Shown here one piece after another: positions 21,327 to 45,865 of a DNA stretch of 51,112 nt (its first letter is position 1; every line of letters starts with the position of its first letter). The position numbers and the translations under genes are program-made. Source of the DNA: an archaeon (GTDB lineage: Archaea > Iainarchaeota > Iainarchaeia > Iainarchaeales > JAAZKV01); contig JBBSVX010000016.1 of assembly GCA_038046585.1 (NCBI GenBank), forward strand, positions 1 through 51,112. The letters are read 5' to 3'. The notes below the pieces were generated by a model that was given only the letters and a program-made list of their open reading frames with translations, was not told the DNA's origin and made no database searches.

Positions 21327-22250
21327 ATGAAAATTCTTGTAACCGGCGGATGCGGATTCATTGGAAGCCACATCATAGATGAACTGGTAAAAAACAAGCA
21401 TGACGTCGTTGTCTTAGACAACCTTAGCACTGGAAGCAAAAAATATCTAAACCCAAAAGCAAAATTCTATGAAGCTGATATTCGCGAGGACATTTCGGAC
21501 ATTTTCCTTAAAGAAAAGCCAGAAATTGTAATCCATACTGCGGCGCAGGTAATGCTTCGAAAATCCATTGAAGAGCCGATTGAGGACGCAAAAATCAACA
21601 TATTTGGGACAATTAATGTTCTTGAAGCTTGCAAAAAAAGTAAAGTAAGAAAAATTATTTACACTTCCACCGGCGGAGCAAGATACGGCGAACCAAAGTA
21701 TTTGCCGGTAGATGAAAATCACCCTATCCACCCACTTTCCCCGTATGGAATCTCAAAGCACACTGCCGAGCATTATATCGAATCTTACAGCAACCTTTAC
21801 GGAATTGAATACTTAATTGTCGGATTTGGAAATGTTTACGGACCAAGAGATGACCCCGCATTCAAAAGAGTTATTTGCCTTTTTGCGATGCAAATATTGA
21901 ATGGAGAAACGCCTAAAATATTTGGAGATGGAGAGCAAGTGAGAGATTTTATTTTTGTCAAAGATATCGCGGACTTTATTGCAAGTTGCATTGATAAAAA
22001 ACCCGAACACAAATTATTCAATCTTGCAAACGGGGAGAAAGTCACAGTTAACCAAATCTATTCAATGCTTAAGGAAGTCTCGGGCTTTGCCAAAGACGCC
22101 GAACATATAAATGCAATAAAAGGCGAAGTAAGAGAAATACAACTTGACACCACTCTGGCAAAAAAAGAGCTTGGATGGACCCCAAAAACCAAATTAATAG
22201 ATGGAATTAAAGAAACTTTTGAATGGCTGAAAGAGAATCGAAAAAAATAA
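21327..22250 (+). CDS. NAD-dependent sugar-nucleotide epimerase (GalE-like SDR)
   Basis: MKILVTGGCGFIGSHIIDELV (Rossmann GxxGxxG) and SPYGISKHTAEHY (YxxxK). Confidence 0.85.
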   Translation: MKILVTGGCGFIGSHIIDELVKNKHDVVVLDNLSTGSKKYLNPKAKFYEADIREDISDIFLKEKPEIVIHTAAQVMLRKSIEEPIEDAKINIFGTINVLEACKKSKVRKIIYTSTGGARYGEPKYLPVDENHPIHPLSPYGISKHTAEHYIESYSNLYGIEYLIVGFGNVYGPRDDPAFKRVICLFAMQILNGETPKIFGDGEQVRDFIFVKDIADFIASCIDKKPEHKLFNLANGEKVTVNQIYSMLKEVSGFAKDAEHINAIKGEVREIQLDTTLAKKELGWTPKTKLIDGIKETFEWLKENRKK

Positions 22251-22255
22251 GCAAA

Positions 22256-23095
22256 TTATTTGAAAGACTCAAACGTTTTCTTCATCAGTAGCGCATCTTC
22301 TTCAATAATCGGCGACTCACAAACAATTACCCCTTTGCAGTCAAACCCCGCGAGCGCTTTCATCAGATCCTTATAATTGAAATCTGATTTTTCAAGCGGC
22401 AAGTGTCTTCGCTCACCTTTAGCAGTGTATTCAATTCCTGATACGTGACAGTGGAGATTGTTCAAAAAATCTTTTCCAAGAGCACTTTTTGATTGCTCCA
22501 ATACGTTGCAAAACTCTTTGTAAGTGTTGTACTTTCCGTTGCTCCTTGCGTGCAGGTGTGAAAAATCAATGCAAGGCAAAACATTGTCAAGCTCTGAACA
22601 AAGTTTTAGTAGCTCCTCAAGCGAACCGAACTGCGTTCCTTTACCTGTCGTTTCAGGGCGAATTGTAATTGCAATCTTTTGTTTCTTCATCTCGCCAAGG
22701 ATTATTTCAAATTGTTCCTTAATATCATCAAAAGTTTTCTTTGGAGTTTCCCCCACATAAAACCCAGCGTGGAATGTCATTGATTTTGCCCCCGCTAGCG
22801 CGGCGATTCTTGCTGCATGTATCACTCGTTCCCTTGAAGCATCCATTTTTTCTTTTTCTTCTGCATTAAGGTTGATATAATACTGGCCGTGACAAGTCAG
22901 GTTTACGCCTACATCTAAAGCAGCTTTCTTTACAAGGGGAGCGCTTCTCTCGCTCAAATTAACATTATGAACAAATTCCAGTTCCATCCCGCCTAAACCA
23001 AGCTCCGCTACGCGCTTTATCCCCTCAATAGTAGTTGGATCCTTTGTAGAAAGAGGGATACCTGCCGTTCCGAAATATAATTTGTCAAATGACAT
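22256..23095 (-). CDS. nfo: endonuclease IV-type AP endonuclease (xylose-isomerase-like TIM barrel)
   Basis: CHGQYYINLN, MTFHAGFY, RPETTGKGTQFGSLEELLKL and CIDFSHLHARSNG resemble Nfo metal-binding motifs. Trimmed to the ATG at 23095. Confidence 0.7.
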   Translation of the reverse strand: MSFDKLYFGTAGIPLSTKDPTTIEGIKRVAELGLGGMELEFVHNVNLSERSAPLVKKAALDVGVNLTCHGQYYINLNAEEKEKMDASRERVIHAARIAALAGAKSMTFHAGFYVGETPKKTFDDIKEQFEIILGEMKKQKIAITIRPETTGKGTQFGSLEELLKLCSELDNVLPCIDFSHLHARSNGKYNTYKEFCNVLEQSKSALGKDFLNNLHCHVSGIEYTAKGERRHLPLEKSDFNYKDLMKALAGFDCKGVIVCESPIIEEDALLMKKTFESFK

Positions 23096-25355
23096 GACAA
23101 GATATGAGTTAGGGGGAATAAAAGAGTGTTGGAACAAGGAAAAACTTTTCTTTTTAAATCATTGCTTCCCTAAATCAATCAATCAAATCAATTCAATAAA
23201 AGTGATTATTTTGGAACAAAGCCCCGAAGCACATCAATCACATCACACTCACACAAATTCAAGTGACTTTTTCGCAAATGCTAAAACAAAATTGTGGGAA
23301 AATAGAAAAATAATCATACTTCTAATTGTAATCTTCTTGCTCGCAATGGGCATAAGGGCTCACCTAATGAGATACGAAGGTGACTACCTTTTTGAGCCTG
23401 ATGCTTATTACCACGCAAGAATGATAATGTATTACGTGACAGAAGGATCCGTACCTGCAATTGACTCACACACTTATTACCAATTAGGCGGAATCCCCCC
23501 GCAGCCTTTTTCAGGATACTGGTGGTTTAGCGGAGTGATATATAATTTACTAGCTTTATTTGGAGCCTTTAACAAAGGGCTCTTCACATGGAGCATCAAA
23601 TTCGCGCCAACTATATTTGGTGCACTAATAAGCATCGCAATGTATTTTTTATCAAAAGAAGTGTTCAATAGCAAGAAAGTTGGACTTGTTGCAGCGTTCC
23701 TCGCCGCAGTAACTCCCGCATTCGCTTATAGAACCATGGCTGGAGCGCAAGGAGATAACTCTCTAGGGTTTTTGTGGATGGCAATTGGACTTTACTTTTT
23801 AGTAATGTCGGTTAAGACAAAACATCTAGGTAAAAAAGAAATCATCTATTCGATCGTAGCTGCATTAATGTTCGGAATAATGGCTTGGACTTGGAGAATG
23901 TACTTGCTTGTGCCCATAGTGCTTGTGCTCTACACGATTTTTGCAGCAATAAAGATTGCAAGCGAAATTAAGAATGAAGAGAAATCCTTTTTGAAAAGCC
24001 CAGTAGCTTCTTTTTTAGCAAAGATAATTATCACACTAACAATATTCTCGGTAATTGCATATGCGACAGGAAACAACCCTATCGGAGAAGGAATAGACAA
24101 TCTTGCAAGAACGCTTGACGTAGACTCCACAATTATGCTGATGGCAATAAGTGCAGGGGCCTTGGTTTTCATTACGACGAGCCTATTTGTAGGAAAACTT
24201 TCAGAGGACAACAAGAAGATATTCTCATCACTCGTGGTAGCCGGTCTATATGTAGGGCTTTTGGCGATGACATTCTTGTTCATAACCGAGCCCGATATGT
24301 TTTATAGAGGGGGAGGGAGAGATTCAATAGGCTCAATGGTAGGAGAAGAAAGCGTAGGAAGCAAATTTTTCGGAACAAAATACAACGCACTTATTATACT
24401 GCCCGTTTTAGCATTGATATTTTTGCCCATAATGCTTTATTTCAACAGAAGGGAAGATTCTCACACCCAAATCATATTTTGGTTTTGGACAATAGTTACT
24501 CTATTCATGGCATGGTACAAACTAAAATTCACTTTTGTTTTTGGATTAGGATTAGTTGCTGGCGCAGCAATATTTGCATACCTTGCATTTGAAATGATAA
24601 AAAGATTTGATTTAGGCAAGGGGATCGAGACAAAAACAACAGTTGTAGCATTATTTTTCTTAATGGTTCTTGGAGTCGGATCAGCAGCAATATTCATGCC
24701 AGATTATACTCCTTTTGCAAACTCTGATCCAGCACTCATACAAACAATGGATTGGATCAAATCTAGCACACCGGCAGATGCAAAGTTTTTCAACTGGTGG
24801 AACAATGGACACATGTTTTCGTATGTTACCGAAAGATATTTTTCAACCGATAACAGAAATTACTCGCCCAGAGCGAATCAAGCAATGGCTGAATTTGTAA
24901 CATTAAATGACGTTAATAAAGCATACAGCGTTGCGAAAGATGAAATTGGGGCAGATTACATAATACTCGAAGAAGACATGTTTTTGGCGATGCCGACTTA
25001 TGAGTTCTATGTTCAGGATAAAGTTGATTACAAGGCCGTTCAAAAGTACTATGAAGGGACATACAGGATACTCAGCTGCTACGATACAGGAACCTCAAAG
25101 ATGTGCGATGGATCGCAAATATCCTTCGAACAATTCAACTCGCTGTCAACCGAATGGAAATCCACGCCGGATGACTTCTACAATGGACAATCACCATTAT
25201 ACTACTACCACACGACAGATGAAGTTTACTTATTGAACACTGCAATAAACAACTCAAATCTCGCAAAGGTATGGTTCCACAGCGCTGACACAAACGGCTT
25301 CTACGAAGAAGTATTTGCGGCAAAAGGAATGAAGATATTCAAGATTCTCAAATAA
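23094..25355 (+). CDS. aglB: oligosaccharyltransferase AglB (STT3, GT66)
   Basis: Multi-TM N-domain with LFEPDAYYHARM (EL1 acidic motif) and AGAQGDNSLGF, followed by WWNNGHMFSY at the WWDYG position. The start is uncertain: ATG 23094 overlaps the nfo start, and GTG 23203 or TTG 23212 are alternatives lying just before TM1. Confidence 0.85.
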   Translation: MTRYELGGIKECWNKEKLFFLNHCFPKSINQINSIKVIILEQSPEAHQSHHTHTNSSDFFANAKTKLWENRKIIILLIVIFLLAMGIRAHLMRYEGDYLFEPDAYYHARMIMYYVTEGSVPAIDSHTYYQLGGIPPQPFSGYWWFSGVIYNLLALFGAFNKGLFTWSIKFAPTIFGALISIAMYFLSKEVFNSKKVGLVAAFLAAVTPAFAYRTMAGAQGDNSLGFLWMAIGLYFLVMSVKTKHLGKKEIIYSIVAALMFGIMAWTWRMYLLVPIVLVLYTIFAAIKIASEIKNEEKSFLKSPVASFLAKIIITLTIFSVIAYATGNNPIGEGIDNLARTLDVDSTIMLMAISAGALVFITTSLFVGKLSEDNKKIFSSLVVAGLYVGLLAMTFLFITEPDMFYRGGGRDSIGSMVGEESVGSKFFGTKYNALIILPVLALIFLPIMLYFNRREDSHTQIIFWFWTIVTLFMAWYKLKFTFVFGLGLVAGAAIFAYLAFEMIKRFDLGKGIETKTTVVALFFLMVLGVGSAAIFMPDYTPFANSDPALIQTMDWIKSSTPADAKFFNWWNNGHMFSYVTERYFSTDNRNYSPRANQAMAEFVTLNDVNKAYSVAKDEIGADYIILEEDMFLAMPTYEFYVQDKVDYKAVQKYYEGTYRILSCYDTGTSKMCDGSQISFEQFNSLSTEWKSTPDDFYNGQSPLYYYHTTDEVYLLNTAINNSNLAKVWFHSADTNGFYEEVFAAKGMKIFKILK

Positions 25356-25406
25356 GGCCAAAATCGTACCAACCCTTTTAAAAATAAGAAAAATCTACTA
25401 ATATAT

Positions 25407-26390
25407 ATGCTATACTACATATCAGCAGCGATAGCTGCTATTGCCGTCCTTTTGATAATGCCTCCTTTCATAAGAAGAATGCACAAACAAGATTTTGTGG
25501 GCAAAGACATGAACAAATACTCAAAGCCAGCGATTGCCGAACTTGGAGGAGTAGTAGTTTTTTTGGGATTTGCGCTCGGAATATTTTCCTCGATGTTCCT
25601 CAGCACCTACCTTCAATCATTTTCACTTGATTTCACCCTTCTCTTTGCAGGATTCGCCACAATCGCGATGATTGCGTTTGTCGGATTCATTGATGACATA
25701 ATAGGATGGAAAAAAGGAATAAGACAATGGCAACATGCACTTTTCCCAATCCTTGCAGCGCTTCCATTGATGGCAATAAGCGCCGGGGACACAACAATGA
25801 CTTTACCATTTGTAGGACTCGTAAATCTCGGGATAATTTTTCCGTTAGTAATAATTCCTTTAGGCATAACCGGCGCAAGCAATGCATTTAACATGCTTGC
25901 GGGATTTAATGGACTTGAAGCAACGCAAGGGATACTCATAACAGCAACGCTCACAATAATTGCACTAATTACAGGAAACATGACTGCAGCAATATTAGGT
26001 CTTGCAATGATTGGAGCCTTAATAGCTTTCTTACGGTTCAACTGGTTTCCCGCAAAAATATTCGGAGGAGATTCGCTAACTCTAATGGTTGGAGCAAATA
26101 TTGCTGTAATGAGCATAATTGGAAATATGGAAATAGCAGGCGTAATTTTAATTTCATTATACTTCATCGAATTCATAATCAAAGCAAAGCATAAATTCCA
26201 AAGCGAATGCTTCGGTTTGCCCCAAAAGAGTGGAAAGCTAAGCTACAATCCTAAAGGGGGGTCATTGACCCACCTTGTTCTCAGAATGGGAAAAAATAAT
26301 CTAACAGAACCCCAAGTAACCATAATAATAAGTATTTTTCAGTTATCAATATGCATCATAACGCTAGCAATTTTCTTCTTAAAGATTTAA
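25407..26390 (+). CDS. aglH: Alg7/AglH-type UDP-GlcNAc:dolichyl-phosphate GlcNAc-1-phosphate transferase
   Basis: Polytopic protein with FVGFIDDIIGWKKG and NAFNMLAGFNGLEATQG. This is the eukaryotic/archaeal N..N..AG.NGLE variant, not the bacterial DG.DGL variant. Confidence 0.85.
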   Translation: MLYYISAAIAAIAVLLIMPPFIRRMHKQDFVGKDMNKYSKPAIAELGGVVVFLGFALGIFSSMFLSTYLQSFSLDFTLLFAGFATIAMIAFVGFIDDIIGWKKGIRQWQHALFPILAALPLMAISAGDTTMTLPFVGLVNLGIIFPLVIIPLGITGASNAFNMLAGFNGLEATQGILITATLTIIALITGNMTAAILGLAMIGALIAFLRFNWFPAKIFGGDSLTLMVGANIAVMSIIGNMEIAGVILISLYFIEFIIKAKHKFQSECFGLPQKSGKLSYNPKGGSLTHLVLRMGKNNLTEPQVTIIISIFQLSICIITLAIFFLKI

Positions 26391-26405
26391 ACAAAGGTTT
26401 TTCTT

Positions 26406-27374
26406 ATGCCTAAAGCAAAAGTTGCCTTCAAGAATTTCTGGAGGGAAGCAAAAGATAGCGACAATCTTTACAAACGCTTATTAACCGAAAATTTTGATTT
26501 AGAAGAAAGCGAAAACCCGGATTTTGTCTTTTATTCCTCATTCGCTGACGGAAAGAACACTCACAAAATGGAAAAAATCACCGGAAACTTCACAAAGATA
26601 TTTTGCACAGGAGAAAATATCAAAATAAACATGAAAAATACTGATTGGGCTTTTGGATTTGATTATGAAGATAAAATAAAGAATCCAAAATATATGCGAG
26701 TGCCGCTTTACGCATATTATGGCGCAGGAAATGATCTGGTAAAAACAAAATCAAAAGTGAATGAAGCCCTAAAAAGCGATAGAAAGTTTTGCAATTACAC
26801 TTACTCAAAAGATGCAAAAGAAAGGGTTCTTTTTTTCAAAGAACTCTCAAAATACAAAAAAATAGACGCACCAGGAAAATCACAAAACAATTGCCCCCCA
26901 ATTGTGCCAAAGAACCTTTATCTTTTAACCAAACCAATACAGATTATTGAATCTATGGCTGGCAAATACCCTATTTCCTCGCTCATCTCAAGGCACTCGC
27001 AGAATTGGAAAGAAGACAAAATAGATTTCCTTAGAAATTACAAGTTTACGATTGCTTTTGAAAATTCAGAAGGCGAGGGGTACACCACTGAAAAAATATA
27101 CCACCCAATGCTTGCTAACAGTATTCCTTTGTATTGGGGAAATCCTGAGATACAAAGGGACTTCAATACAAAGAGCTTTGTAAATTACTATGATTATAAT
27201 GATTTTAGGAAAATGGCCGACAAAGTAATCGATCTTGATACAAATACAAAAAAATATGAAAAAACTCTAAACAAACCATGGTTCAACAAAAACAGACCGA
27301 ACAAGTGGTGCGGAAAAAAAAGAATAATTACCCAACTTGAAAAGATACTACAACAAAAATCAAGGAAGCAGTGA
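26406..27374 (+). CDS. GT10-family alpha-1,3/4-fucosyltransferase
   Basis: YKFTIAFENSEGEGYTTEKIYHPMLANSIPLYWGNPEIQRDFNTKSFVNYYDY closely matches the FucT catalytic core motif (FENS..GY.TEK...IP.YWG). Confidence 0.85.
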   Translation: MPKAKVAFKNFWREAKDSDNLYKRLLTENFDLEESENPDFVFYSSFADGKNTHKMEKITGNFTKIFCTGENIKINMKNTDWAFGFDYEDKIKNPKYMRVPLYAYYGAGNDLVKTKSKVNEALKSDRKFCNYTYSKDAKERVLFFKELSKYKKIDAPGKSQNNCPPIVPKNLYLLTKPIQIIESMAGKYPISSLISRHSQNWKEDKIDFLRNYKFTIAFENSEGEGYTTEKIYHPMLANSIPLYWGNPEIQRDFNTKSFVNYYDYNDFRKMADKVIDLDTNTKKYEKTLNKPWFNKNRPNKWCGKKRIITQLEKILQQKSRKQ

Positions 27375-27379
27375 TATTT

Positions 27380-27835
27380 ATGGTAAAAGAAAACATCTGC
27401 ATTGCAGCAAGCGCAGGCGGACACCTCAATGAAGCTCTCCAGCTCAAAGAATCTTGGGCTGGAAAGAAACATTTCTTTATTAGTGATGAAAGGGTAAATG
27501 CAAAAGCTCTTGCACGAACCGAGAAAATGTATTATATAATGCCGGCAAGAAGGAATCCTTTAAGGCTCGCTTATGGATTTCTTCAGACCTCAGGCATATT
27601 TCTAAGAGAAAACCCCTCAACTATCATCTCAACCGGTGCCGAAAGCGCCTTTCCCGCAATAATACTCGGGGTTATACTGGGGAAAAGAGTCGTTTACATC
27701 GAAAGCTTTGCGAGAATAAGTTCCCCAAGTCTTTGCGGCAAACTCGTCTATCCTTATGTCAAGGACTTTTATGTTCAATGGCCACAAGGGAAAAAATGGT
27801 TCCCAAAAGCAAAATACATCGGGAGCGTGTTCTAA
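27380..27835 (+). CDS. Alg14-like glycosyltransferase subunit
   Basis: AASAGGHLNEA and VVYIESFARISSPSLCGKLVYPYVKDFYVQW resemble Alg14 (VYVESLARI..PSLTGK...QW). An alternative GTG start at 27371 overlaps the fucT stop. Confidence 0.8.
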   Translation: MVKENICIAASAGGHLNEALQLKESWAGKKHFFISDERVNAKALARTEKMYYIMPARRNPLRLAYGFLQTSGIFLRENPSTIISTGAESAFPAIILGVILGKRVVYIESFARISSPSLCGKLVYPYVKDFYVQWPQGKKWFPKAKYIGSVF

Positions 27836-28293
27836 TGAAAATCTTTGTCACGGTCGGAAGCATGTTCCCGTTCGACAGGCTCATCAAAGAGATTGACAAG
27901 GTCGCCAAAGAAGGGAAGCACGAGATATTTGCTCAAACAGGGGAAAGCACTTATTTGCCGAAGAACTGCAAATACAAACCTTTTTTGGATTACTCAGAGA
28001 ATATTTCAAAAATGAAGCAAGCCGATGTCATAATCAGCCATGCGGGAGTGGGTACGGTGATTGACATAATGTCAAGCAAGAAGCCCTTCATTTTGGTGCC
28101 GAGGCTTTCAAAATACAAGGAAGCGATAGACGACCACCAGCTGGAGCTTTGCAAATATTTGCATAAAGAATTTGACGCGACATATCTCACAAATGAATCT
28201 GAAATTGTTCCTGCATTAAAAAAAGCCAAGGCAATAAAAAGAGGCAATCAAAACGAGGCACTTTTAAAAGAAATCAAGAGCCTTATACGCTAG
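27835..28293 (+). CDS. Alg13-like glycosyltransferase catalytic subunit (GT28 C-terminal domain)
   Basis: MKIFVTVGSMFPFDRL, ISHAGVGTVIDIM, KPFILVPR and DDHQLELCKYL. The ATG overlaps the alg14-like stop (TAATG). Confidence 0.8.
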   Translation: MKIFVTVGSMFPFDRLIKEIDKVAKEGKHEIFAQTGESTYLPKNCKYKPFLDYSENISKMKQADVIISHAGVGTVIDIMSSKKPFILVPRLSKYKEAIDDHQLELCKYLHKEFDATYLTNESEIVPALKKAKAIKRGNQNEALLKEIKSLIR

Positions 28294-29036
28294 CCCTTGT
28301 GAACCTTAAGCCCAAGAATTGAAAATATTTTTTTCAGCAATCCAAAAACCCTATGTTTGACAAAGAGCACGGCAAATGGAACAAATCCAAAATGTTTCTT
28401 TATTACTGCCTCGGTTTCTCTATAAGATACTGACCCCGAACTAACACCGCCAATCTGAACGGTTGCAATAATCCTGTCAATTTTCTTACCAACAGCGCCT
28501 TTCTTAATTATTCTGCAAAACCAATCAAAATCCGCCGAAGAACGATATGAATTATCAAAAAGATTCTCAAGAAGAAGCTTTCTTCTAACGAAAGTGGCTT
28601 GGTGGGGAGGCATACTGCCTTTTTTTATTTCAGCCATTGACGCAATCCTTGTTATTCGCTTAGATATTTTTTCTTCAGGATAATAAAAATTCACGTCACC
28701 ATAAACAAAATCAATTCCTTTCTCAAATGCTTTGACAGCGTCTGAAACCACATGTTTGCTGTAAAAAACATCATCTGCATTTAGAAAAAACACAACATCG
28801 CCAGAAGCCTTCTTTACAGCGATGTTCATTGCATCATAAAGGCCAGCATCCTTCCCTTCGATAACAACATCAATTCGCTTTCCATATTTTTTAACTATTT
28901 TCAATGTAGAATCCTTTGATCCACCGTCTTTTATCAAATATTCTATATTAGGACAGTCCTGAGAAAGAACTGATTTGATTGTTTCTTCAATCGTTGAAGC
29001 TGCGTTGAAGCAGACGGTAACTATTGATACTTTCAA
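28290..29036 (-). CDS. GT2-family glycosyltransferase
   Basis: VSIVTVCFNAASTIEETIKSVLSQDCPNIEYLIKDGGSKDSTL and FFLNADD (DxD). TTG start with AGGTG 6 nt upstream. Confidence 0.85.
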   Translation of the reverse strand: MKVSIVTVCFNAASTIEETIKSVLSQDCPNIEYLIKDGGSKDSTLKIVKKYGKRIDVVIEGKDAGLYDAMNIAVKKASGDVVFFLNADDVFYSKHVVSDAVKAFEKGIDFVYGDVNFYYPEEKISKRITRIASMAEIKKGSMPPHQATFVRRKLLLENLFDNSYRSSADFDWFCRIIKKGAVGKKIDRIIATVQIGGVSSGSVSYRETEAVIKKHFGFVPFAVLFVKHRVFGLLKKIFSILGLKVHKG

Positions 29037-29046
29037 ATAAACACCT

Positions 29047-30000
29047 TTATTTTTTCAGAGATTTCCACCAAGTCTCGTTTTGTTTGTACCAGTCTATTGT
29101 CTTCTTCAATCCTTCCTCAAAGCAGTATTTTGGCTTCCATCCAAGCTCGCGAAGCTTCGAGCCATCAAGTGAGTACCTAAAATCATGGCCTTTTCTATCC
29201 TCGACGCGCTGTATCATCTCTTCGCCTTTACCAAATTCCTTAAGCACTCTTTTAGTCATCTCAAGATTTGTAAGCTCCTCGCCAGAAGCGATGTTGTATA
29301 TTTCACCTTTCTTTCCTTTCTTTATTGCAGTAAGTATACCTCGACAATTATCCTCAACATGGGTCCACTCCCTCACTTGCTTTCCTTCCCCATAAAGAGG
29401 AACTTTCTTGTTTTCTATTAGGTTTGTTATAAACAAAGGAAGCACCTTTTCAGGAAATTGATATGGGCCGTAGTTGTTCGACGAACGTGTTATCATCGTC
29501 GGCAGACCATAAGTCTCTTTGAATGCATTAACAAACATTTCAGCAGAAGCCTTTGAAGCGCTATAAGGATTTCTTGGGTGAAGCAAATCTTTCTCAGTAA
29601 ACGATCCAGACATTATCTGGCCGTATACTTCATCAGTTGAGATTTGAATGAACAATGAAGCCTTTGAATTTAGGGCTGCGTCAAGTAATGTCGTTGTCCC
29701 TTTTATGTTGGACTCAATGAATGGGTTGAGATCGTTTAAACTTCTGTCCACATGGCTCTCTGCAGCAAAATTGAGTACCACATCAACGCCTTCCATAGCT
29801 TTCTTTACTACACTCCTATCGCAGATGTCCCCTTTCACAAGCTTGTATCTTTTATTTACCTTAATGTCATTAAGGCTTGCTGGATTTGCAGCATAGGTAA
29901 GTTTGTCAAGATTCACTATTTCATAGTCAGTAGTTTCAAGTGCAAGCCTAACAAAATTCGATCCGATGAACCCCATTCCGCCGGTTACCAACAGTTTCAT
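29047..30000 (-). CDS. rfbB: dTDP-glucose 4,6-dehydratase
   Basis: MKLLVTGGMGFIGSNF, AAESHVDRS and PYSASKASAE, sited directly downstream of rfbA. Confidence 0.9.
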   Translation of the reverse strand: MKLLVTGGMGFIGSNFVRLALETTDYEIVNLDKLTYAANPASLNDIKVNKRYKLVKGDICDRSVVKKAMEGVDVVLNFAAESHVDRSLNDLNPFIESNIKGTTTLLDAALNSKASLFIQISTDEVYGQIMSGSFTEKDLLHPRNPYSASKASAEMFVNAFKETYGLPTMITRSSNNYGPYQFPEKVLPLFITNLIENKKVPLYGEGKQVREWTHVEDNCRGILTAIKKGKKGEIYNIASGEELTNLEMTKRVLKEFGKGEEMIQRVEDRKGHDFRYSLDGSKLRELGWKPKYCFEEGLKKTIDWYKQNETWWKSLKK

Positions 30001-30002
30001 AT

Positions 30003-30872
30003 TCAAGCCTCCTTTGCTATTCTAAGCAGATATTTTCCATACTCGCTGTTCTTCATCAAATCTGCAAGTTTTGTAAGCTGCTCTTTTGTTATGAACCTTT
30101 TCATGTAAGCTATCTCCTCAAGACACGCTATCTTAAGACCCTGACGTCTCTCGAGAATTTCAATATAGTTTGAGGCTTCCATCAACGATGCTGGGGTGCC
30201 CGTGTCAAGCCATGCAAAGCCCCTTCCAAGTATTTCGACTTTAAGCTTTCCGCGCTTGAGATATTCCTTATTGATGTCCGTTATCTCGGTCTCACCGCGA
30301 GGAGAAGGCTTGAGATTGTGCGCTATTGTCACAACATCATTATCATAGAAATAAAGCCCTGTGACAGCATAATTGGATTTCGGCTCCTTGGGCTTCTCAA
30401 CAAGTGCCACGGGAGCGCCTTTGGCATCAATTTCCACAACACCAAATCTTTGCGGATCCGGTACAGAATATGCAAATACGGTTGCACCATTAGTAGATTT
30501 CACCGCTTTAGATAGAGTTTGCACAAAGCCCTCGCCGCAGAATATGTTGTCCCCAAGTATGAGACAAACTGAGTCTTTGCCAATGAATTTTTCCCCAATA
30601 GTAAAAGCCTGAGGAATTCCTTTAGGTTCATTTTGAACAGCATAAGTCAACTTCATCCCAAGGGACGAACCATCCCCAAGTAAGTTTTCGAATTGAGGCG
30701 TATCCTTAGGAGTGGATATTATTAGCACATCCTTTATGCCCGCAAGCATAAGCACCGAAAGAGGATAGTATATCATCGGCTTATCGTAAACCGGTATTAA
30801 CTGTTTGCAGCATACCTTTGTTATAGGATAAAGCCTCGTTCCGGCACCGCCGGCAAGTATTATTCCCTTCAT
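30003..30872 (-). CDS. rfbA: glucose-1-phosphate thymidylyltransferase
   Basis: [19 protein letters not shown]..., ILGDNIF and [19 protein letters not shown]. Confidence 0.9.
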
Positions 30873-30878
30873 ACCATT

Positions 30879-31970
30879 TCACCCCAAAAACCTGTTAGCA
30901 GATTCAATAACTTTCATTATATCTTCCTTTTTGTGGAAGTACGATATAGGTATACTCAGAGTGGTTGCATGAATCTCTTCAGATATAGGGCACTTGCACT
31001 TATCTATTATCCCCTTCATAGCGACCTGCTTGTTTGGTGAAACAGGATAATGAACCTCAGTCTTCACGCCATCTTGGAGCATGTGCGCCCTCAACTCATC
31101 TCTGTTCTTGTGTCTGATATTGAATATGTGGTAAACATCAAAGAATCCTTGTTCGACAATCGGTTTAGCATAATCATTAGAAAGCTTTTCAAGATAAATT
31201 TTTGCAAGCATCCTCTTGTGCGCATTTATATCATCAAGCTTTTTCAGCTTCTGCAATAGGAACGCAGCCTGCAATTCATCAAGCCTCGAATTATATCCAA
31301 CAAGCTCGTTGTAGTACTTTACCTTCGAGCCATAATTTCTAAGCATCCTTGCTTTCTCAGCCAAAACATCATCGTTTGTCATTATAGCGCCTGCTTCTCC
31401 AAGCGCACCAAGGTTCTTTGTTGGATAAAAGCTAAATGCGTTAATGGTTCCAAAAGAACCGGCTCTTTTTTTTCCTTGCATTGCGCCGTGAGCCTGTGCA
31501 CAATCTTCTACAACTGCAAGAGAATGTTTTTTGGCTAATTCCATTATTTGTTCCATGTCGCAAAGTTTGCCGTAGAGATGTACAGGCATTATTGCAGATG
31601 TTTTTTTAGTAATCTTCTTTTCTATAAGACAAGGATCAATATTGTATGTCTTAATGTCCGGCTCAACAAGAACGGGCTTAAGACCTGCTTGCAAGATGGA
31701 TATTATTGAAGCAATGTAGGTGTTTGAGGGCACAAGCACTTCTGAATTCTCTTTCAGATTGAGCGCCTTGAGAGATAGGGTAAGTGCGTCAAGTCCAGAA
31801 GCCACTCCGACACAATGTTTAACTCCGCAATAAGCAGCAAACTGCTTCTCAAAGTCCTGCACTGACTGCCCGAGAACGTATCTTTCACTTTCAAGAAATG
31901 ATGCGAACGCTTTCCTATAATCATCGAAAAACGGGGCGTTTGATTTCCTTAAATTTTCGTATTCAATCAT
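30879..31970 (-). CDS. DegT/DnrJ/EryC1-family sugar aminotransferase (FdtB/QdtB-like)
   Basis: PLP aminotransferase pattern: NAFSFYPTKNLGALGEAGAI (Lys region) and RNYG. Trimmed to the ATG at 31970, which overlaps the ketoisomerase stop by 8 nt. Confidence 0.85.
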   Translation of the reverse strand: MIEYENLRKSNAPFFDDYRKAFASFLESERYVLGQSVQDFEKQFAAYCGVKHCVGVASGLDALTLSLKALNLKENSEVLVPSNTYIASIISILQAGLKPVLVEPDIKTYNIDPCLIEKKITKKTSAIMPVHLYGKLCDMEQIMELAKKHSLAVVEDCAQAHGAMQGKKRAGSFGTINAFSFYPTKNLGALGEAGAIMTNDDVLAEKARMLRNYGSKVKYYNELVGYNSRLDELQAAFLLQKLKKLDDINAHKRMLAKIYLEKLSNDYAKPIVEQGFFDVYHIFNIRHKNRDELRAHMLQDGVKTEVHYPVSPNKQVAMKGIIDKCKCPISEEIHATTLSIPISYFHKKEDIMKVIESANRFLG

Positions 31971-32328
31971 CATATCCCTCATCAATGTAATCGTCCTTAT
32001 CATAGTGAGTGGACGCAAGCACCATCAGCACAGCGCCCTTTGAAAACTTCTGCATTGTGTGCCAATCCTTCGGATTGAGGAGAAGAACTTTTTCAAGCGA
32101 ATCAAGCAAGAAAGTCTTTTTTGACGAGCCATCGTTGACAAAGATCTCGCAACTACCACTCACGCTGATTAGAGCCATCATCGTCTTCTTGTGTCTATGC
32201 CCTCCGCGCAGCCCTTTTACATCATGAATATAAAATACCCTCTTTATCTCAAAAGGCAACACCTTGTCAATCACAGTAAGCTTGCCGTCCTTGTCCGCAA
32301 ACGTCTTGACAAATATTATTTCAGCCAT
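31963..32328 (-). CDS. dTDP-4-keto-6-deoxyhexose 3,4-ketoisomerase (FdtA/QdtA/WxcM cupin)
   Basis: LPFEIKRVFYIHDVKGLRGGHRHKKTMMALISVSGSC...WHTMQKFS...MVLAS aligns with FdtA (IKRVYYIFD...RGFHAHKK). Confidence 0.8.
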   Translation of the reverse strand: MAEIIFVKTFADKDGKLTVIDKVLPFEIKRVFYIHDVKGLRGGHRHKKTMMALISVSGSCEIFVNDGSSKKTFLLDSLEKVLLLNPKDWHTMQKFSKGAVLMVLASTHYDKDDYIDEGYDD

Positions 32329-32331
32329 CAA

Positions 32332-33300
32332 TCACACCTTTAGTTTACCAATATCAATAATATTGAGCTCTCCCTTTGCATACCTAATCAAATCTATGAT
32401 TAGTGTCTTTAAGGTCATTTTTGGTACAAAGTTTTCCCCGAAAAACCTCGAATCCACCATATTTAGCCTCTTTCTTGCCGCAAGCACCTGCTTTAGATAG
32501 GGCAAGTAAATGAAGGATTTGAATGATTTAGGAAGCCTATAAGGGCAAAGGTTTGCATTACTACCTTGTATCTTCAAAGCATGAAAATGGAAGAACACTA
32601 TTTTTGTTTTCTTTCCTGTTGTGGGCTCGACTATTTCGTTGTCGCCAATCGCCTCAAACTTTTGCATATTCCATGGCGCAACCCCTGCCCCAATATTTTG
32701 CGACACATAAACTCCCTCAAATCTTTCAGTCCAGTCGTCAAGATATTTCTGGTCACCAAACTTCCCCTCTTCGGGCTTTGCGAAGCACCAGTCAAGGCAA
32801 GCGTTTCTCCACCACCTTAAAGCTTTCATGCCCTTGACCTCGTTTTTGAATGTCATAAACTGAACACAGTACTTACCACTAACGGCGGATTGATCATACT
32901 GTGACGCGTAATTATGTGTTGTAAGTAGTATTGAGGATTTGCCCATCTCAGAAACAAGCTTTGAAGGATCAGAATAAAAAAATGTATCTGCATCGAGATA
33001 TGTGCATTCCTTTTCCTTAAACTTTTCAAGAACATAAAGAATCGTTGATGATGAACAGGTCCACATGTATTCAACTTTTGATCTCGACTTTTTCGCCGAA
33101 AGCAATTGCTTATCTTCGAAATCCTTAAGCGGCACTACAGTAACCCCTTTGAGCTTCATCTTTAAGAACGTAGAATAGACAAGGTCGTCGAACGCAAATA
33201 TATACAGTCTAAAATTCTTGCAATTCTCCTTAATGGATTCATACAGCAATAATCCTCTGTCGGCGTAATATGAATCAAAGAGCGTACAAAAGACCCTCAT
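32332..33300 (-). CDS. GT-A-type glycosyltransferase (family not assigned)
   Basis: YLDADTFF (DxD) and GDQKYLDDW, in operon context. ATGA overlap with the upstream methyltransferase. Confidence 0.55.
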   Translation of the reverse strand: MRVFCTLFDSYYADRGLLLYESIKENCKNFRLYIFAFDDLVYSTFLKMKLKGVTVVPLKDFEDKQLLSAKKSRSKVEYMWTCSSSTILYVLEKFKEKECTYLDADTFFYSDPSKLVSEMGKSSILLTTHNYASQYDQSAVSGKYCVQFMTFKNEVKGMKALRWWRNACLDWCFAKPEEGKFGDQKYLDDWTERFEGVYVSQNIGAGVAPWNMQKFEAIGDNEIVEPTTGKKTKIVFFHFHALKIQGSNANLCPYRLPKSFKSFIYLPYLKQVLAARKRLNMVDSRFFGENFVPKMTLKTLIIDLIRYAKGELNIIDIGKLKV

Positions 33301-34016
33301 TTAGACACCTTTCTGGCAAGAATTACATTGTCAAGGTATAAGTCCCTGCCTTTAGGAAGAATTCCCGATATAACCCCTAACAAGGTTATAATACTCATCA
33401 CAAATATCATAGCAAAGTATTTCAAAAAAGGATTCCAAGATACAAGCTTGAAAATGTACGCATTTAACAGTTGAAATATTGCAGGTAAACCTTGCACTGA
33501 CTTGTGCTGCTCAATTATTGCAAAGCCGTTTCTTTTTAAAAGATCTACTAGGCCATAGGAAGAATACCTTGCATAATCAACCGGCTGTTCATGCTCATCC
33601 CAAACAAAGGGGACGGTTATCAGAAGCACTCCTTGAGGTTTTAGAACCTCCCAAATCTCAGAGACAAATTCATCTGGCCAAAAAACATGCTCCAACACCT
33701 GGTTGCAAAGGACAGAATCAAAACTTGCTGACTTAAAAGGAAATTTCTTGCCGTTATAAAAACAATCTGCCTTTTTGGCAGCCCTGTTCTCAGTGTTCTC
33801 ATATTCCAAGCCGACATATTTTGAGCCTTTGAAAAGGGATTCATAGGGTCTTTCTCCGCAGCCAACATCAAGTAGCTTACCTTTAAGCCTGGGCGAAAGT
33901 TTGAAAATGTTCAAATAAAGCCCTTTCCTTGCGAGATAAAACGGATTGAGGAAAATTCCTGCGAAACCAGGATCATACCTGTTCTTTGCAGCTACTCTGC
34001 GAATCATTCCAAACAT
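33297..34016 (-). CDS. class I SAM-dependent methyltransferase with a C-terminal hydrophobic segment
   Basis: LLDVGCGERPY (motif I), FDSVLCNQVLEHV and LKPQGVLL. Trimmed to the ATG at 34016. Confidence 0.75.
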   Translation of the reverse strand: MFGMIRRVAAKNRYDPGFAGIFLNPFYLARKGLYLNIFKLSPRLKGKLLDVGCGERPYESLFKGSKYVGLEYENTENRAAKKADCFYNGKKFPFKSASFDSVLCNQVLEHVFWPDEFVSEIWEVLKPQGVLLITVPFVWDEHEQPVDYARYSSYGLVDLLKRNGFAIIEQHKSVQGLPAIFQLLNAYIFKLVSWNPFLKYFAMIFVMSIITLLGVISGILPKGRDLYLDNVILARKVSK

Positions 34017-34017
34017 A

Positions 34018-34818
34018 TCATTTCCTCTTAAAGATAAGTGTCTTGAACACAAAATCCCCACCATAATAATCGTTCGACACTTCCTCAGACATTAGCAAAT
34101 ATTTCTTGGAAATGAGATTATAAAGTTCATCTTCGTCGAATATGCGGCAGGGGTAGCTTGAGTCGTATATCTTAGGATTTACTTTTTGCACGCAAATCCT
34201 GCTTTTGCCCTTTATCATCGGCGTCCGCGATATTATCATGAACTGGGGCGCGAGGTTCATTGTGGTTCTAAGAACTGCAAAAGGGTCTTCGATATACTGC
34301 AATACACTTGAAAAAACAGCCACCGAAGGCTTGTGTCCGGCAGAAAAGTCGCCGATTGAGTCATAAAATTTCAGTGACTTGGATTCGAATTCTTTTTTTC
34401 CAGCTTTGACAAATTCAGGCTGTTCCACAACACCCCAAAATAGACCCTTTATCTGTTTCAAAAAATGCTTATTCTTATAATAGAGATTTCCCAAAGCACC
34501 GCCAAAATCAAGGACAACGACTTTCTTTGAATTTTCTGCGACGGCGAAGATAACTGAAAGCAAATCCCAATCATATTCGGGGAAATGGAAAACAACAGAA
34601 TCCCTCTCAAACGCAGCCTCGCCTTTTTTCACCTTGTGCATCGCAGAGATTACTTTCGACAATATCTCTCCCGAATCATAACCCTTTGAGTGTTTCAACG
34701 CTTCGTCCCATGACATGTAATTTCCCACCCATTTAGTGGATTTTGAGAAGTGCCTGCGGTACGCGCTAAGAATGGGTCTTGGAATCAAGAGTATCACTGG
34801 CTTAAGATTAAGGCTCAT
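34018..34818 (-). CDS. putative methyltransferase (resembles the TIGR04325-type family found in glycan clusters)
   Basis: WVGNYMSWDEALKHSKGYDSGEILSKV, VLDFGGALG and an FSSVLQYIEDP-type C-terminal half. Confidence 0.6.
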   Translation of the reverse strand: MSLNLKPVILLIPRPILSAYRRHFSKSTKWVGNYMSWDEALKHSKGYDSGEILSKVISAMHKVKKGEAAFERDSVVFHFPEYDWDLLSVIFAVAENSKKVVVLDFGGALGNLYYKNKHFLKQIKGLFWGVVEQPEFVKAGKKEFESKSLKFYDSIGDFSAGHKPSVAVFSSVLQYIEDPFAVLRTTMNLAPQFMIISRTPMIKGKSRICVQKVNPKIYDSSYPCRIFDEDELYNLISKKYLLMSEEVSNDYYGGDFVFKTLIFKRK

Positions 34819-35717
34819 CTGAGAATCCCTTTTATGGCGTATACTACATCAAATAATATCCTACCAATTATTGATTGGTTGTACAAAAAGAAAAGTGAAA
34901 ACAGCTTCTTTGCTTGCATATCCTCAGTCACAGAAATTTGTTTCAGATCTACATGCGAATCCGACACTTTACCGAAATACTTGTTGATGCGCCCGCTGTG
35001 AGTGCCGCCTGAAGCCGTACCAATGTTAGTGACAAGCGATTTTCCAGGATAGAGCGTGAGCATACCAGCAAGGAATGCAGATGCATACCACCTTATTGCC
35101 CAAGAGCTGTTCTTTCCCTGAATCTGCTGCCTGAGCATTTTGGTATAAGGGTATGTTCCCCAGAAATCGAATTCGTTCGTGAGCTTCTTCTCTTCAAGAC
35201 GCTTAAGGAGCTTCTTTCCATCCTTTTCAAAGTACTTCCAGGCCCTTTTCCATGTGGCCCAACCCCAACAATCCGCACCTTTGATAAAGAAAGTTTCAGG
35301 AAGACCCGGCGCAGGGTATGAGTAAGCCGAAATGCTCGCAACGTCGTTATTTGACACATACTTATTTAAAGCATCATTCATGTACTGCAGAAAATACTTT
35401 GAGGTCACAAGATCATCCTCTACGACAATAACTCTCCCGTGGCTATTTACGATTTTCGTAACTCCATCAATAATCGATTTTGCGAGCCCATAATTTGATT
35501 TGCGCTCTATTATCTTGATCGACTTGAATCCAGAAACTGTGCGAGCATATTTTCTAACGGCTGCAACCCCATTTGATGCTTTTTCATCCTTTGGTGCATC
35601 GGAGAATATTATAAGGTCCGACTGTTTGGCAAGAATATTTTTCTTGAGCGCTTCAATAGTCCTTGCCGCATGATCCGGTCGATTATAAATGAAAAGCAAT
35701 ATAGGAGCAAGTTTCAT
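34815..35717 (-). CDS. GT-A glycosyltransferase, GnT-I (GT13)-like with EDD motif
   Basis: APILLFIYNRPDHAARTIEALKK and VIVVEDDLVTSKYFLQYM resemble the GnT-I fold motifs. Confidence 0.6.
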   Translation of the reverse strand: MKLAPILLFIYNRPDHAARTIEALKKNILAKQSDLIIFSDAPKDEKASNGVAAVRKYARTVSGFKSIKIIERKSNYGLAKSIIDGVTKIVNSHGRVIVVEDDLVTSKYFLQYMNDALNKYVSNNDVASISAYSYPAPGLPETFFIKGADCWGWATWKRAWKYFEKDGKKLLKRLEEKKLTNEFDFWGTYPYTKMLRQQIQGKNSSWAIRWYASAFLAGMLTLYPGKSLVTNIGTASGGTHSGRINKYFGKVSDSHVDLKQISVTEDMQAKKLFSLFFLYNQSIIGRILFDVVYAIKGILR

Positions 35718-35720
35718 CTG

Positions 35721-36845
35721 TCAACACCCTAGTAGCCTAAACGCGGATTCCAGTTTCGCGATATCCACTGATGCGTCATTCGTATTAATAATACGCCTTT
35801 CAGGATCCGCCATAAAGTAACAATAATCAATACCAACAATATTAGAGAGCGCCCAATAGCACACATTTACATAATCAGGATGAAAGAATTCAATGACTTT
35901 CGTGCCCTTATTGCAAAACACAAGGTTGGCTAGAGCTGCACCATGGAATGCAACCACAACTTTTGCAGAAGCGAATAGCTCCGACTGCTCCGTTACGGAC
36001 AGACCTTCAAGCGAAACAGGCGTGAAGCCCAGGTTTGAGAGGAACTTAATCACGTCACTCTCGTTTGATACGCGTCTCTGCAGCACTGACCCTCTCATAA
36101 CATATATTTTCTCATATTTGATTTTCTTTTCTTTGCTCGGCCTCGAGGAAAGTTTTATCCGCAAAAAATCAACTACTTCCGAAGTAGGATTGCCCGTATG
36201 TATCGGCATCGACGGGGCGATAAGCTCCTCGGCAACGAGGTTCAAAGAATCCGACGATGCGATGATGAGTTTTTTAGGAACCCCAACTTGCAAGAGTGTC
36301 TCTTTCTTGAACTTCCTATCTGCTCCTGTCACATAAAGCTGGGGTTTGATGCCTGATTTTTGAATCAACATTGTTCGCGGCAGTGTCTCAAAAAGCCAGT
36401 GGTAATAGTTGTCAGTATCAGGAAGGACAGCGACCTTGCCTTTTACCGATTTCTCGTGCGGCACCGATAGCCTGTAGAATGCCCTACTATTTCGCCTTCC
36501 AAGTAAAGGATTTATTTCGTCAATAAGATTGCCTGCAGGCGTGACGACGAAGCATTCCTTAAAGAGGCACCTGCCTTTTTTTATTTGCAACACAAAGCTT
36601 GGCTCGTAAGAAAAGTCCAAAAGGTCATGAAACTTTTGATGTATGCTCGGCTCTATCGTAAGAGGAAGCTTGCGGCGCAACTTTCCCCCAGTGAACCTCT
36701 TTATTACTTTTGCCACGCCAGGTTCAGATGAAATCACTTTGTTTATGCTCGCTTGTCCAGAAGGGAATCTGCCGAAAAGCACCCTAAAAGGAGGCGTGTT
36801 CCAAACAATCCTTTTTACTGAAATTAAACTGTCTGCGCCAATCAT
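35721..36845 (-). CDS. GT61/DUF563-family glycosyltransferase
   Basis: YYHWLFETLPR and FHGAALANLVFC are hallmark DUF563 motifs. Confidence 0.75.
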   Translation of the reverse strand: MIGADSLISVKRIVWNTPPFRVLFGRFPSGQASINKVISSEPGVAKVIKRFTGGKLRRKLPLTIEPSIHQKFHDLLDFSYEPSFVLQIKKGRCLFKECFVVTPAGNLIDEINPLLGRRNSRAFYRLSVPHEKSVKGKVAVLPDTDNYYHWLFETLPRTMLIQKSGIKPQLYVTGADRKFKKETLLQVGVPKKLIIASSDSLNLVAEELIAPSMPIHTGNPTSEVVDFLRIKLSSRPSKEKKIKYEKIYVMRGSVLQRRVSNESDVIKFLSNLGFTPVSLEGLSVTEQSELFASAKVVVAFHGAALANLVFCNKGTKVIEFFHPDYVNVCYWALSNIVGIDYCYFMADPERRIINTNDASVDIAKLESAFRLLGC

Positions 36846-36912
36846 AATCTTTTCACCACCCGTAGAGATTCCGCCGAGAAATACGCACTGTCTTTGTAGC
36901 AGTATGAAAGCA

Positions 36913-37803: not shown

Positions 37804-37931
37804 ACATAAGAAAGGATTTTTGCATTTAAATAGCTTATAGTACAAGTTTGAGCACATTAGAAACTTGCCGCACACTTTTGAACCAGCAATCGTTATAAAT
37901 GCAAGGATTATAATAAATTCAAGCGATTAGC

Positions 37932-40292: not shown

Positions 40293-40324
40293 ACCGTCAC
40301 CACGGCAAATTATTTTTTTGAGTT

Positions 40325-43113: not shown

Positions 43114-43833
43114 ATGCAACATACTCTTGATAGCTACAATTCGGGCAAGAGGTACGACTTCATGGAAATTGATTATATTGGAAAGGCGCTTAAGAAACTA
43201 AAACTACTCCCCGAAATAAGGCATGCAAAGATTCTCTTTTCCCAGACGGGGGAAGATGCTTTTCTCAGAGAAGTTTACTTAGAAAAGAAGAAAGGATTCT
43301 ATGTGGATGTAGGCGCACATCATCCAACAAGGTACTCAAATACGTTCATTTTCTACTCTATGGGTTGGAGGGGAATAAACATAGAACCTCAAAAAGAAGC
43401 AATAAGATTGTTTGAGAAAAAAAGACCGCAGGACACAAACCTCAACCTTGCGGTTTCTGACAAAGAAGGAGAAGTTACATTCTTCGAGGCGCCAGATAAT
43501 GCATACAGCACCATACTACCTAGTGTTGCAAAAGACTTCAAGGGAATCAAGACAAGTAGGGTAAAATCAATGCCTCTGTCAAAAATCCTCGACCAATATT
43601 TGCCGAAAGGTACCAAAATTGATTTCTTGAGCACGGATACCGAGGGTAATGACCTAACTGTTCTGAAATCAAACAACTGGAAAAAATACAAGCCGACTTA
43701 TGTTCTTGTCGAGATGATGGAAATGCCGGAATATTCAAAAGAATCAAAGAAGATTTATGATTATTTAAAAAATCAAGGATACAAGTTTGTTGGAAAAACA
43801 AACCTCACAGGGATATTTAAACTAAACAATTAA
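43114..43833 (+). CDS. FkbM-family methyltransferase
   Basis: [31 protein letters not shown] and [16 protein letters not shown] are typical FkbM motifs. Confidence 0.8.
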
Positions 43834-45783: not shown

Positions 45784-45865
45784 AAAAAAACATAGAGCAA
45801 CTCCTTTTTTAATAGGCAATAGTACAAATATAAATTAAGCAAGAAGACAAGAAACAGTGTTTTTC

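Follow-up and report, generated by a model that had tools for sequence, protein, structure and literature searches.

The origin of the eukaryotic Alg7–Alg13/14 complex, which initiates N-glycan assembly, is disputed. Lombard 2016 (PMC4973528) took the split EpsE/F-like genes of archaea to be infrequent acquisitions from bacteria and proposed that Alg13/14 arose in bacteria, whereas an archaeal origin was argued by Meyer 2022 (PMC8993221). In the latter work, the EpsE/F-like sequences of DPANN archaea are interspersed with bacterial ones and the eukaryotic sequences branch with those of Asgard archaea; EpsE/EpsF of Lactobacillales are described there as linking glucose (Glc) or galactose (Gal) β-1,4 to lipid-linked glucose. 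The present analysis concerns a block of five genes in an archaeon of the DPANN phylum Iainarchaeota, located on contig JBBSVX010000016.1 (assembly GCA_038046585.1), the whole 51,112 nucleotides (nt) of which are referred to below as the window. The block encodes the oligosaccharyltransferase AglB (STT3), a polyprenyl-phosphate N-acetylhexosamine-1-phosphate (HexNAc-1-P) transferase of the Alg7/AglH/DPAGT1 type (GPT), a GT10 enzyme resembling α-1,3-fucosyltransferases, and two small proteins resembling Alg14 and Alg13. That these genes form a core module for AglB-dependent N-glycans has good support from gene identity and synteny. Somewhat beyond this, the block rather probably represents the conserved core of N-glycosylation through AglB in this archaeon, operating by the steps proposed below.

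The AglB block and its conservation

Sequence comparison established the identities of the five genes, their catalytic motifs and the conservation of the block. Open reading frames (ORFs) confirmed that all five genes lie on the plus strand between 23082/23094 and 28293, in the order given by a sequence-only reading of this DNA (Table 1), and all five proteins score above the Pfam cut-off. The gaps of 51, 15 and −1 nt claimed in that reading were borne out, but the gap put at about 0 is in fact 5 nt, between GT10 and the ATG of the Alg14-like gene at 27380, or a 4-nt overlap if the alternative upstream GTG at 27371 is used; the position of ATG 27380 is the start site in relatives. The 1-nt stop–start overlap of the last two genes is also as described, TAA (27833–27835) and ATG (27835–27837) forming TAATG. 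The Alg14-like (151 aa) and Alg13-like (152 aa) proteins are encoded by separate adjacent ORFs with a stop codon between them. The Alg13-like gene and the convergent GT2 gene that follows share overlapping stop codons in the sequence CTAG (28290–28293), leaving no intergenic room for a terminator. A promoter and terminator scan found nothing above shuffled sequences, using models of the bacterial type that are unsuited to archaea.

Using tblastn, the window proteins were mapped onto contigs carrying close homologues and onto 34 archaeal and 46 bacterial species-level loci, taken from GTDB genomes; the archaeal loci include one Micrarchaeota and one Hydrothermarchaeota genome. In 32 archaeal loci, Alg14–Alg13 are directly preceded on their strand by an Alg7-like GPT, and AglB is found upstream of the GPT in 28 of the 28 related archaeal loci that reach far enough upstream; in one of these, L041, the AglB–GPT pair is divergent. 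Other species-level genomes of the phylum show this co-directional arrangement again, so that it is more than chance; throughout Iainarchaeota, and in some other DPANN lineages, the split pair is a constant member of an operon that also encodes AglB and an Alg7-like GPT. The proposal that the block forms the core of an AglB-linked N-glycan pathway is thus backed by phylum-wide synteny.

AglB is present in 0 of the 46 bacterial loci. Thirteen of these loci, as well as the Lactococcus plasmid pNZ4000, carry an EpsD-type hexose-1-phosphate transferase (PHPT), which was found neither in the window nor in any archaeal locus, the Alg7-like GPT standing directly upstream of the pair instead. The archaeal pair therefore adjoins a different kind of priming enzyme than the bacterial one does, which points to a HexNAc-diphosphate-lipid (HexNAc-PP-lipid) acceptor. 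In three Bacillaceae loci (L075–L077), a GPT-like gene, 30–31% identical, lies about 6.5 kb downstream.

The placement of GT10 between GPT and Alg14, pointed out earlier for the window, recurs in 15 further loci. Genomes with GT10 group as a single clade whether the tree is built from Alg13 (support 91/91) or from Alg14 (100), as would be expected if GT10 had entered an older AglB–GPT–Alg14–Alg13 block only once. In 13 loci of this clade, an orthologue of the GT2 gene (48–61% identity) lies directly after Alg13 on the opposite strand. Beyond the block and the GT2, gene content varies by species, the Rml/DegT/FdtA string being common to the window and L017 only, as is expected of a fixed core with variable outer sugars. 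The individual enzymes are ordinary members of known families; the window contributes a GT10 with a fixed place in the core block, and a conserved convergent GT2.

Two other arrangements were seen among the relatives. In L001 (5265–5923), and also in L002, genes of a ribbon–helix–helix antitoxin and a PemK toxin are located between AglB and GPT, breaking the otherwise fixed block. In the Aenigmatarchaeota locus L010 (8380–11009), Alg14/Alg13 are followed by a flippase, and convergent to these are a GPT and a 531-aa protein of the PMT_2 family, with no recognisable STT3.

AglB matches Pfam STT3 (1.3e-16) and AglB_core-like, and scores 92.6 bits with NCBIfam archaeo_STT3, below the cut-off. The GPT belongs to PF00953 Glycos_transf_4 (8e-34). 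Compared with solved structures, it is closest to human DPAGT1 (74 bits as a single sequence, 102.8 bits as a 19-sequence profile), with MraY at 44.7 and 56.9 bits, respectively. Across 19 relatives its DD, NxxNxLAGxNGLE and GD motifs do not vary, except at F167 and G169. The AG.NGLE motif reported earlier for this protein, A165-G-F-N-G-L-E171, aligns with AGINGLE of human DPAGT1; the bacterial counterpart of this motif is DGxDGLA. The motif, the family membership and the bit scores all uphold the assignment to the Alg7 type. The loop of DPAGT1 that reads the N-acetyl group gave no reliable alignment with the GPT.

The split Alg14-like and Alg13-like pair

Both halves of the pair pass the equivalog cut-offs of curated NCBIfam models: the Alg14-like protein scores 123.9 bits with PssD (cut-off 110) and the Alg13-like protein 125.8 bits with PssE (cut-off 120). 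The corresponding Pfam matches are Alg14 (9.1e-14) and Glyco_tran_28_C, PF04101 (1.9e-18). The identity of the pair to bacterial PssE/EpsF is 36–41%. The Alg13-like protein is 36% identical to EpsF of L. cremoris pNZ4000 (96 bits) and 31% identical to human ALG13 (56 bits); yeast Alg13 gives 22.6 bits. By its sequence, the pair belongs to the EpsEF/PssDE family.

In the Alg14-like protein, G13-G14-H15 and E108 are invariant among relatives; the histidine equivalent to H15 is essential in Agl24 (Meyer 2022, PMC8993221). Its AlphaFold model (mean predicted local distance difference test score, pLDDT, 90.5) has the N-domain of E. coli MurG as its closest fold (TM-score 0.81), and a sequence search against the PDB gave no match. 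The N-terminus reads MVKENICIAASAGGH; in the model, the first strand starts at residue 5, with no hydrophobic segment, and no membrane anchor or transmembrane segment was found in the sequence or the model. In the Alg13-like protein, R15, P89-R90, E96 and a four-residue insert at 91–94 (LSKY here; consensus LKKF) are common to all prokaryotic members, whereas vertebrate and yeast ALG13 have none of them.

A search of the Alg13-like protein for residues diagnostic of the donor revealed only differences specific to clades. The GT10-bearing subclade has A97 (His in EpsF-type proteins and MurG, Leu in ALG13), D/E77 (S/T/G/N in EpsF-type proteins, Glu in ALG13 and MurG) and C106 (Ala in bacterial members); no role in reading the C2 substituent is known for any of them, and position 77 presumably corresponds to a ribose contact, not a sugar contact, in MurG. 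Being near the donor site, the three positions might be leads to the donor sugar, and leads only. The sequence around position 97 (window 28123–28125) is GEA(V/I)DDHQ in the GT10 clade, in a Helarchaeota sequence and in L039, and GEHxxDHQ in nearly all other archaeal and bacterial PssE-type proteins.

The maximum-likelihood Alg13 tree was based on 94 Alg13-type sequences and about 160 columns, eukaryotes being represented by seven vertebrates and a yeast fragment; the Alg14 tree contains prokaryotic sequences only. The human ALG13 probe was confirmed by a 99% match named Homo sapiens ALG13, and the trees were built from database sequences only. A profile seeded with the yeast Alg13 fragment (PDB 2ks6) had only prokaryotic sequences among the matches listed. 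In the Alg13 tree, a 99/100 branch parts the eukaryotes from all prokaryotes. The GT10-clade group is sister to the Helarchaeota sequence (99/96). Forty-two bacterial sequences, with EpsF and a Rhizobium protein that bears a glucuronosyltransferase annotation among them, form one clade (99/95), which arises from within other Iainarchaeal and Aenigmatarchaeal sequences (85/93). An approximately unbiased (AU) test did not reject the joining of the window clade to eukaryotic ALG13 as sampled here (p = 0.18). When E. coli MurG was tried as an outgroup, it attached to the window's own branch by a branch of 10 changes per column, and this placement was rejected as long-branch attraction.

The description of the pair as 'eukaryote-style' in the sequence-only reading is not supported, because the pair passes the PssD and PssE cut-offs, carries the prokaryote-wide residues and insert, lacks the Alg14 anchor and is separated from ALG13 by the 99/100 branch. 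As for the question, raised in the same reading, of whether the pair would cluster with bacterial transferase pairs, it does so at the level of the PssDE/EpsEF family, but the window sequence stands outside the bacterial subclade that holds EpsF and the Rhizobium protein. The Alg13 tree agrees with Meyer 2022 (PMC8993221), where DPANN split sequences fall in the EpsE/F portion of the tree, and does not fit the view of Lombard 2016 (PMC4973528) that archaeal split sequences are few and were transferred from bacteria. Together with the fixity of the operon, the branching of the bacterial clade from within archaeal sequences, in a tree of limited size, suggests a native archaeal N-glycosylation context for the split pair.

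GT10, donor supply and the outer-glycan island

The GT10 protein contains FucT_N (6.4e-17) and Glyco_transf_10 (1.8e-16) domains, both above the Pfam cut-off, and matches H. pylori FucT (PDB 2nzw) over its full length (3.5e-25). Residues E95, N240, E249 and K250 of the latter, which, like R195, are taken to be catalytic, correspond to E70, N220, E229 and K230 of the window protein and are invariant in 16 Iainarchaeal copies. The equivalent of R195 is ambiguous in the alignment, a near-invariant Arg in a KER sequence fitting by eye. With both domains and four catalytic residues kept, the original identification of this gene as GT10 holds. Characterised GT10 enzymes act on GlcNAc (N-acetylglucosamine) or Glc bearing a β-linked sugar, and those of the H. 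pylori type on Gal-β1,4-GlcNAc. The family is large, with 7913 clusters at E ≤ 1e-3 among 1.84 billion representatives; among the nearest representatives one cluster, from Nanoarchaeota, is named and nearly all others are without a name. The Iainarchaeal GT10 proteins have a conserved insert of about 25 residues (residues ~160–205) before the FENS motif, APGKSxNN...PI...LL.K..Q..E...SSL.SRH, which H. pylori FucT does not have, and end in a short basic tail with no heptad repeats. The insert and the tail may relate to a lipid-linked acceptor.

A supply of GDP-L-fucose (GDP-Fuc) appears to be encoded in the window itself, since gmd scores above its cut-off and is accompanied by an fcl-like gene of the short-chain dehydrogenase/reductase (SDR) type; the two genes lie 16 kb from the block. 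In three relatives, L001, L017 and L018, a gmd adjoins GT10 itself, which also favours a link between the two. The island downstream of the GT2 gene comprises genes for a variable outer glycan and a flippase candidate (Table 1). It includes a GT61 domain (8.4e-30) at 35721–36845 and a GT15 Kre2/Mnt1-like gene (1.5e-16) at 37932–38948; both families are known mainly from eukaryotes. The window also encodes TATA-binding protein (TBP), FtsZ and ribosomal proteins L1 and L10P; these genes, and the names of close homologues, assign it to Iainarchaeota, and its DNA stems from a groundwater metagenome.

Table 1. Features of the block and of the surrounding glycan genes (window coordinates)
Feature	Position	Strand	Evidence or remark
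GalE-like epimerase	21327–22250		
AglB/STT3 oligosaccharyltransferase	23094–25355	+	ORF open from TTG 23082; Pfam STT3
GPT, Alg7/AglH/DPAGT1-type polyprenyl-phosphate HexNAc-1-P transferase	25407–26390	+	PF00953
GT10 α-1,3-fucosyltransferase-like GT-B enzyme	26406–27374	+	FucT_N and Glyco_transf_10
Alg14-like/PssD-family N-terminal (acceptor-side) half of split MurG-like transferase	27380–27835	+	PssD; Pfam Alg14
Alg13-like/PssE-family C-terminal (donor-side) half	27835–28293	+	PssE; PF04101
GT2 glycosyltransferase, convergent partner of the block	28290–29036	−	PF00535 1.4e-27
Variable outer-glycan operon: RmlB, RmlA, DegT, FdtA, glycosyltransferases, methyltransferases, GT61	29047–37875	−	Pfam and NCBIfam
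Wzx/MOP-type flippase candidate	38949–40328	−	Polysacc_synt_3 4.5e-25; Polysacc_synt 2.8e-22
UDP-glucose 6-dehydrogenase (Ugd)	41180–42487		
GDP-L-fucose synthase-like SDR (fcl-like)	43830–44831	−	NCBIfam GDPFucSynFcl 270.5 bits
GDP-mannose 4,6-dehydratase (gmd)	44773–45819	−	TIGR01472 531.8 bits, cut-off 415

A candidate pathway and its relation to known systems

In the pathway that we infer, every substrate and the order of the steps are read from the genes. The Alg7/AglH-type GPT would load HexNAc-1-P, most likely GlcNAc-1-P, onto dolichyl phosphate. The anchor-less PssD-type and PssE-type halves would then add a second sugar, in β-1,4 linkage, to the HexNAc-PP-lipid, a role suggested by synteny and family. 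GlcNAc is the most economical guess for the donor; the characterised members of the PssDE/EpsEF family are reported in the literature to use Glc, Gal or glucuronic acid (GlcA). The GT10 would attach a 6-deoxyhexose in α-1,3 linkage, L-fucose being the likeliest, with GDP-Fuc supplied by the products of gmd and the fcl-like gene in the island. Its target would likely be the reducing GlcNAc, giving X-β1,4-(Fuc-α1,3)-GlcNAc-PP-dolichol; a β1,4-substituted GlcNAc carrying α1,3-fucose is the acceptor geometry of characterised GT10 enzymes. Either a chitobiose or a hexose/hexuronic acid–GlcNAc product of the pair would present this familiar acceptor, GlcNAc bearing a β-1,4-linked sugar. Completion of the chain may fall to the convergent GT2, which is conserved, and to the variable transferases downstream; the Wzx-like flippase would then turn the chain outward and AglB would transfer it to asparagine.

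Several points weigh against this pathway. In the literature searched, neither N-glycan structures nor biochemical data were found for DPANN archaea, and the public sequencing runs found were DNA metagenomes of groundwater and aquifers, with no RNA runs among them. The AglB motif at 24796–24813 is WWNNGH in place of WWDYG; in 28 Iainarchaeal, Micrarchaeal and related AglBs (L001–L045), the motif is WW[DNGS]xGH with the G-H fixed, and the variation at its third position shows that Asp is not conserved in this AglB lineage. Of the relatives placed in the tree, only Lactococcus EpsF is functionally characterised, and it reportedly transfers glucose; the glucuronosyltransferase label of the Rhizobium protein is annotation only. 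The position of the GT10 gene does not by itself prove action on the core or at an early step. The fcl-like gene has GDPFucSynFcl as by far its best match and yet stays under the 500-bit cut-off of that model. In genomes of the L001 type, the SDR beside gmd (7939–8808 in L001, with equivalents in L017 and L018) reaches only 26.5 bits with Fcl and best matches LegB/GalE-type proteins; it is not recognisably Fcl, so the GT10 donor there could be another GDP-6-deoxyhexose.

Whether the core is chitobiose or a hexose or hexuronic acid on GlcNAc is, on this evidence, about equally balanced. A true chitobiose synthase, converting UDP-GlcNAc into GlcNAc-β1,4-GlcNAc-PP-dolichol like Alg13/14 and Agl24, as put forward in the sequence-only reading, is a serious possibility that falls a little short of being favoured. 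The pair comes directly after an Alg7-like GPT, together with AglB, throughout the phylum, and the other branches of the superfamily (MurG, Agl24 and Alg13/14) all transfer GlcNAc (Meyer 2022, PMC8993221). The bacterial Glc/GlcA enzymes are a derived clade nested among DPANN sequences; the window subclade has an acidic residue 77, like ALG13 and MurG, and does not have the EpsF-type His97; sistership to eukaryotic ALG13 is not rejected by the AU test; and UDP-GlcNAc would be the sole requirement, which would suit a reduced genome. This has to be set against the PssD/PssE cut-offs passed by the pair, its higher score with Lactococcus EpsF than with human or yeast Alg13, the branch that sets it apart from ALG13 and the presumed role of position 77 as a ribose contact. 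The addition of Gal, Glc or GlcA to GlcNAc-PP-dolichol, by analogy with PssDE/EpsEF/Cps14FG acting on Glc-PP-undecaprenol, is just as conceivable, being a close contender without an edge. If the donor were Gal, the product would be N-acetyllactosamine, which the GT10 would convert into a Lewis-X-like Gal-β1,4-(Fuc-α1,3)-GlcNAc core, and Gal-β1,4-GlcNAc is the acceptor on which the best structural relatives of the GT10, those of the H. pylori type, are taken to act. Family membership by curated hidden Markov models and the identity to bacterial PssE/EpsF argue in the same direction, as do the Ugd and the GalE-like epimerase of the island, although the last two are not conserved beside the block in relatives, the window clade lies outside the bacterial clade and the priming enzyme, hence the acceptor, is unlike that of all characterised family members.

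The role of the GT10 is similarly divided. It may instead decorate an outer residue or use another GDP-6-deoxyhexose, its position between GPT and Alg14 being an accident of insertion; the chance of this is considerable, if somewhat less than even. Archaeal agl clusters are presumably not ordered by step as a rule, the family is large and, in L001, gmd is accompanied by an SDR unlike Fcl. Spacing also varies: about 2.4–2.9 kb separate GPT from GT10 in L019 and L022, and GT10 is separated from Alg14 by a methyltransferase in L003 and L013 and by gmd and the SDR in L001, L017 and L018. However, in each of the 15 related loci that the clade comprises the GT10 keeps its place within the core block, whereas the outer-glycan genes differ, and the acceptors taken to be typical of GT10 enzymes, β-substituted GlcNAc or Glc, are what the GPT and the pair would make. 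It is very improbable that the cluster makes a glycoconjugate other than a glycoprotein, for example a lipoglycan or exopolysaccharide, with AglB adjacent by coincidence: the PssDE family is known from bacterial exopolysaccharide and capsular polysaccharide loci and a Wzx-type flippase is present, but AglB adjoins the block in all of the loci that reach far enough and the window showed neither a Wzy-type polymerase nor a chain-length regulator.

For the AglB-dependent pathway proposed here, a more far-reaching version would be a core-fucosylated chitobiose, GlcNAc-β1,4-(Fuc-α1,3)-GlcNAc, built on dolichyl diphosphate before transfer, with its steps encoded in one operon (GPT, GT10, the split anchor-less pair and STT3/AglB). 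This is unlikely, but, if true, these archaea would be the first prokaryotes in which all three eukaryote-type initiation enzymes, in split form, work in N-glycosylation; core α-1,3-fucose of the plant/insect type would be added at the lipid stage and not on the protein, and A97, D/E77 and C106 of the Alg13 half in the GT10 clade might reflect adaptation to a fucosylated acceptor. The set of three to five genes is small and expressible, which allows testing of which disaccharide core these archaea make, and the variant with GT10 is a testable case of lipid-linked core fucosylation. Any DPANN core structure, even a plain one, would fill a gap in the literature searched.

As with the window pair, PssD/PssE of Rhizobium, Cps14F/Cps14G of S. 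pneumoniae and EpsE/EpsF of Lactococcus pNZ4000 are pairs of polypeptides of about 150 aa, with the N-terminal half encoded first and the genes overlapping or abutting. The motifs GGH, ES.AR, PR-LKKF-GE and DDHQ are common to these bacterial pairs and the window pair, and a second sugar, β-1,4-linked, is expected to be placed onto a sugar-PP-polyprenol. NCBIfam also names a related fused β-1,4-glucuronosyltransferase, WelK. The window pair differs from the three bacterial pairs in its priming enzyme, an Alg7/DPAGT1-type HexNAc-1-P transferase in place of a PHPT hexose-1-phosphate transferase, and in its partner, AglB in place of the Wzy/Wzz capsule machinery. With the eukaryotic system of Alg7 (DPAGT1), Alg13/Alg14 and STT3 it shares three enzyme families, their logical order and a split second-step enzyme. 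However, eukaryotic Alg14 recruits Alg13 through an N-terminal membrane anchor that the window Alg14-like protein does not have, and eukaryotic Alg13 is without the prokaryotic insert and PR motif.

Agl24 of Sulfolobus acidocaldarius (PMC8993221) has an essential GGH histidine and a conserved glutamate, both of which are present in the window Alg14-like protein. Agl24 is, however, one fused polypeptide from a separate, exclusively archaeal clade, whereas the window pair consists of two ORFs; the activity of Agl24 was shown in vitro, and that of the window pair is predicted. The GT10 protein aligns with H. pylori FucT (PDB 2nzw, CAZy GT10) in both domains and conserves the FENSxGxGYxTEK motif, but differs from it in lacking the heptad-repeat tail and in carrying the additional insert before FENS. 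Unlike H. pylori FucT, it is encoded inside an AglB/GPT operon, and its acceptor is therefore probably lipid-linked.

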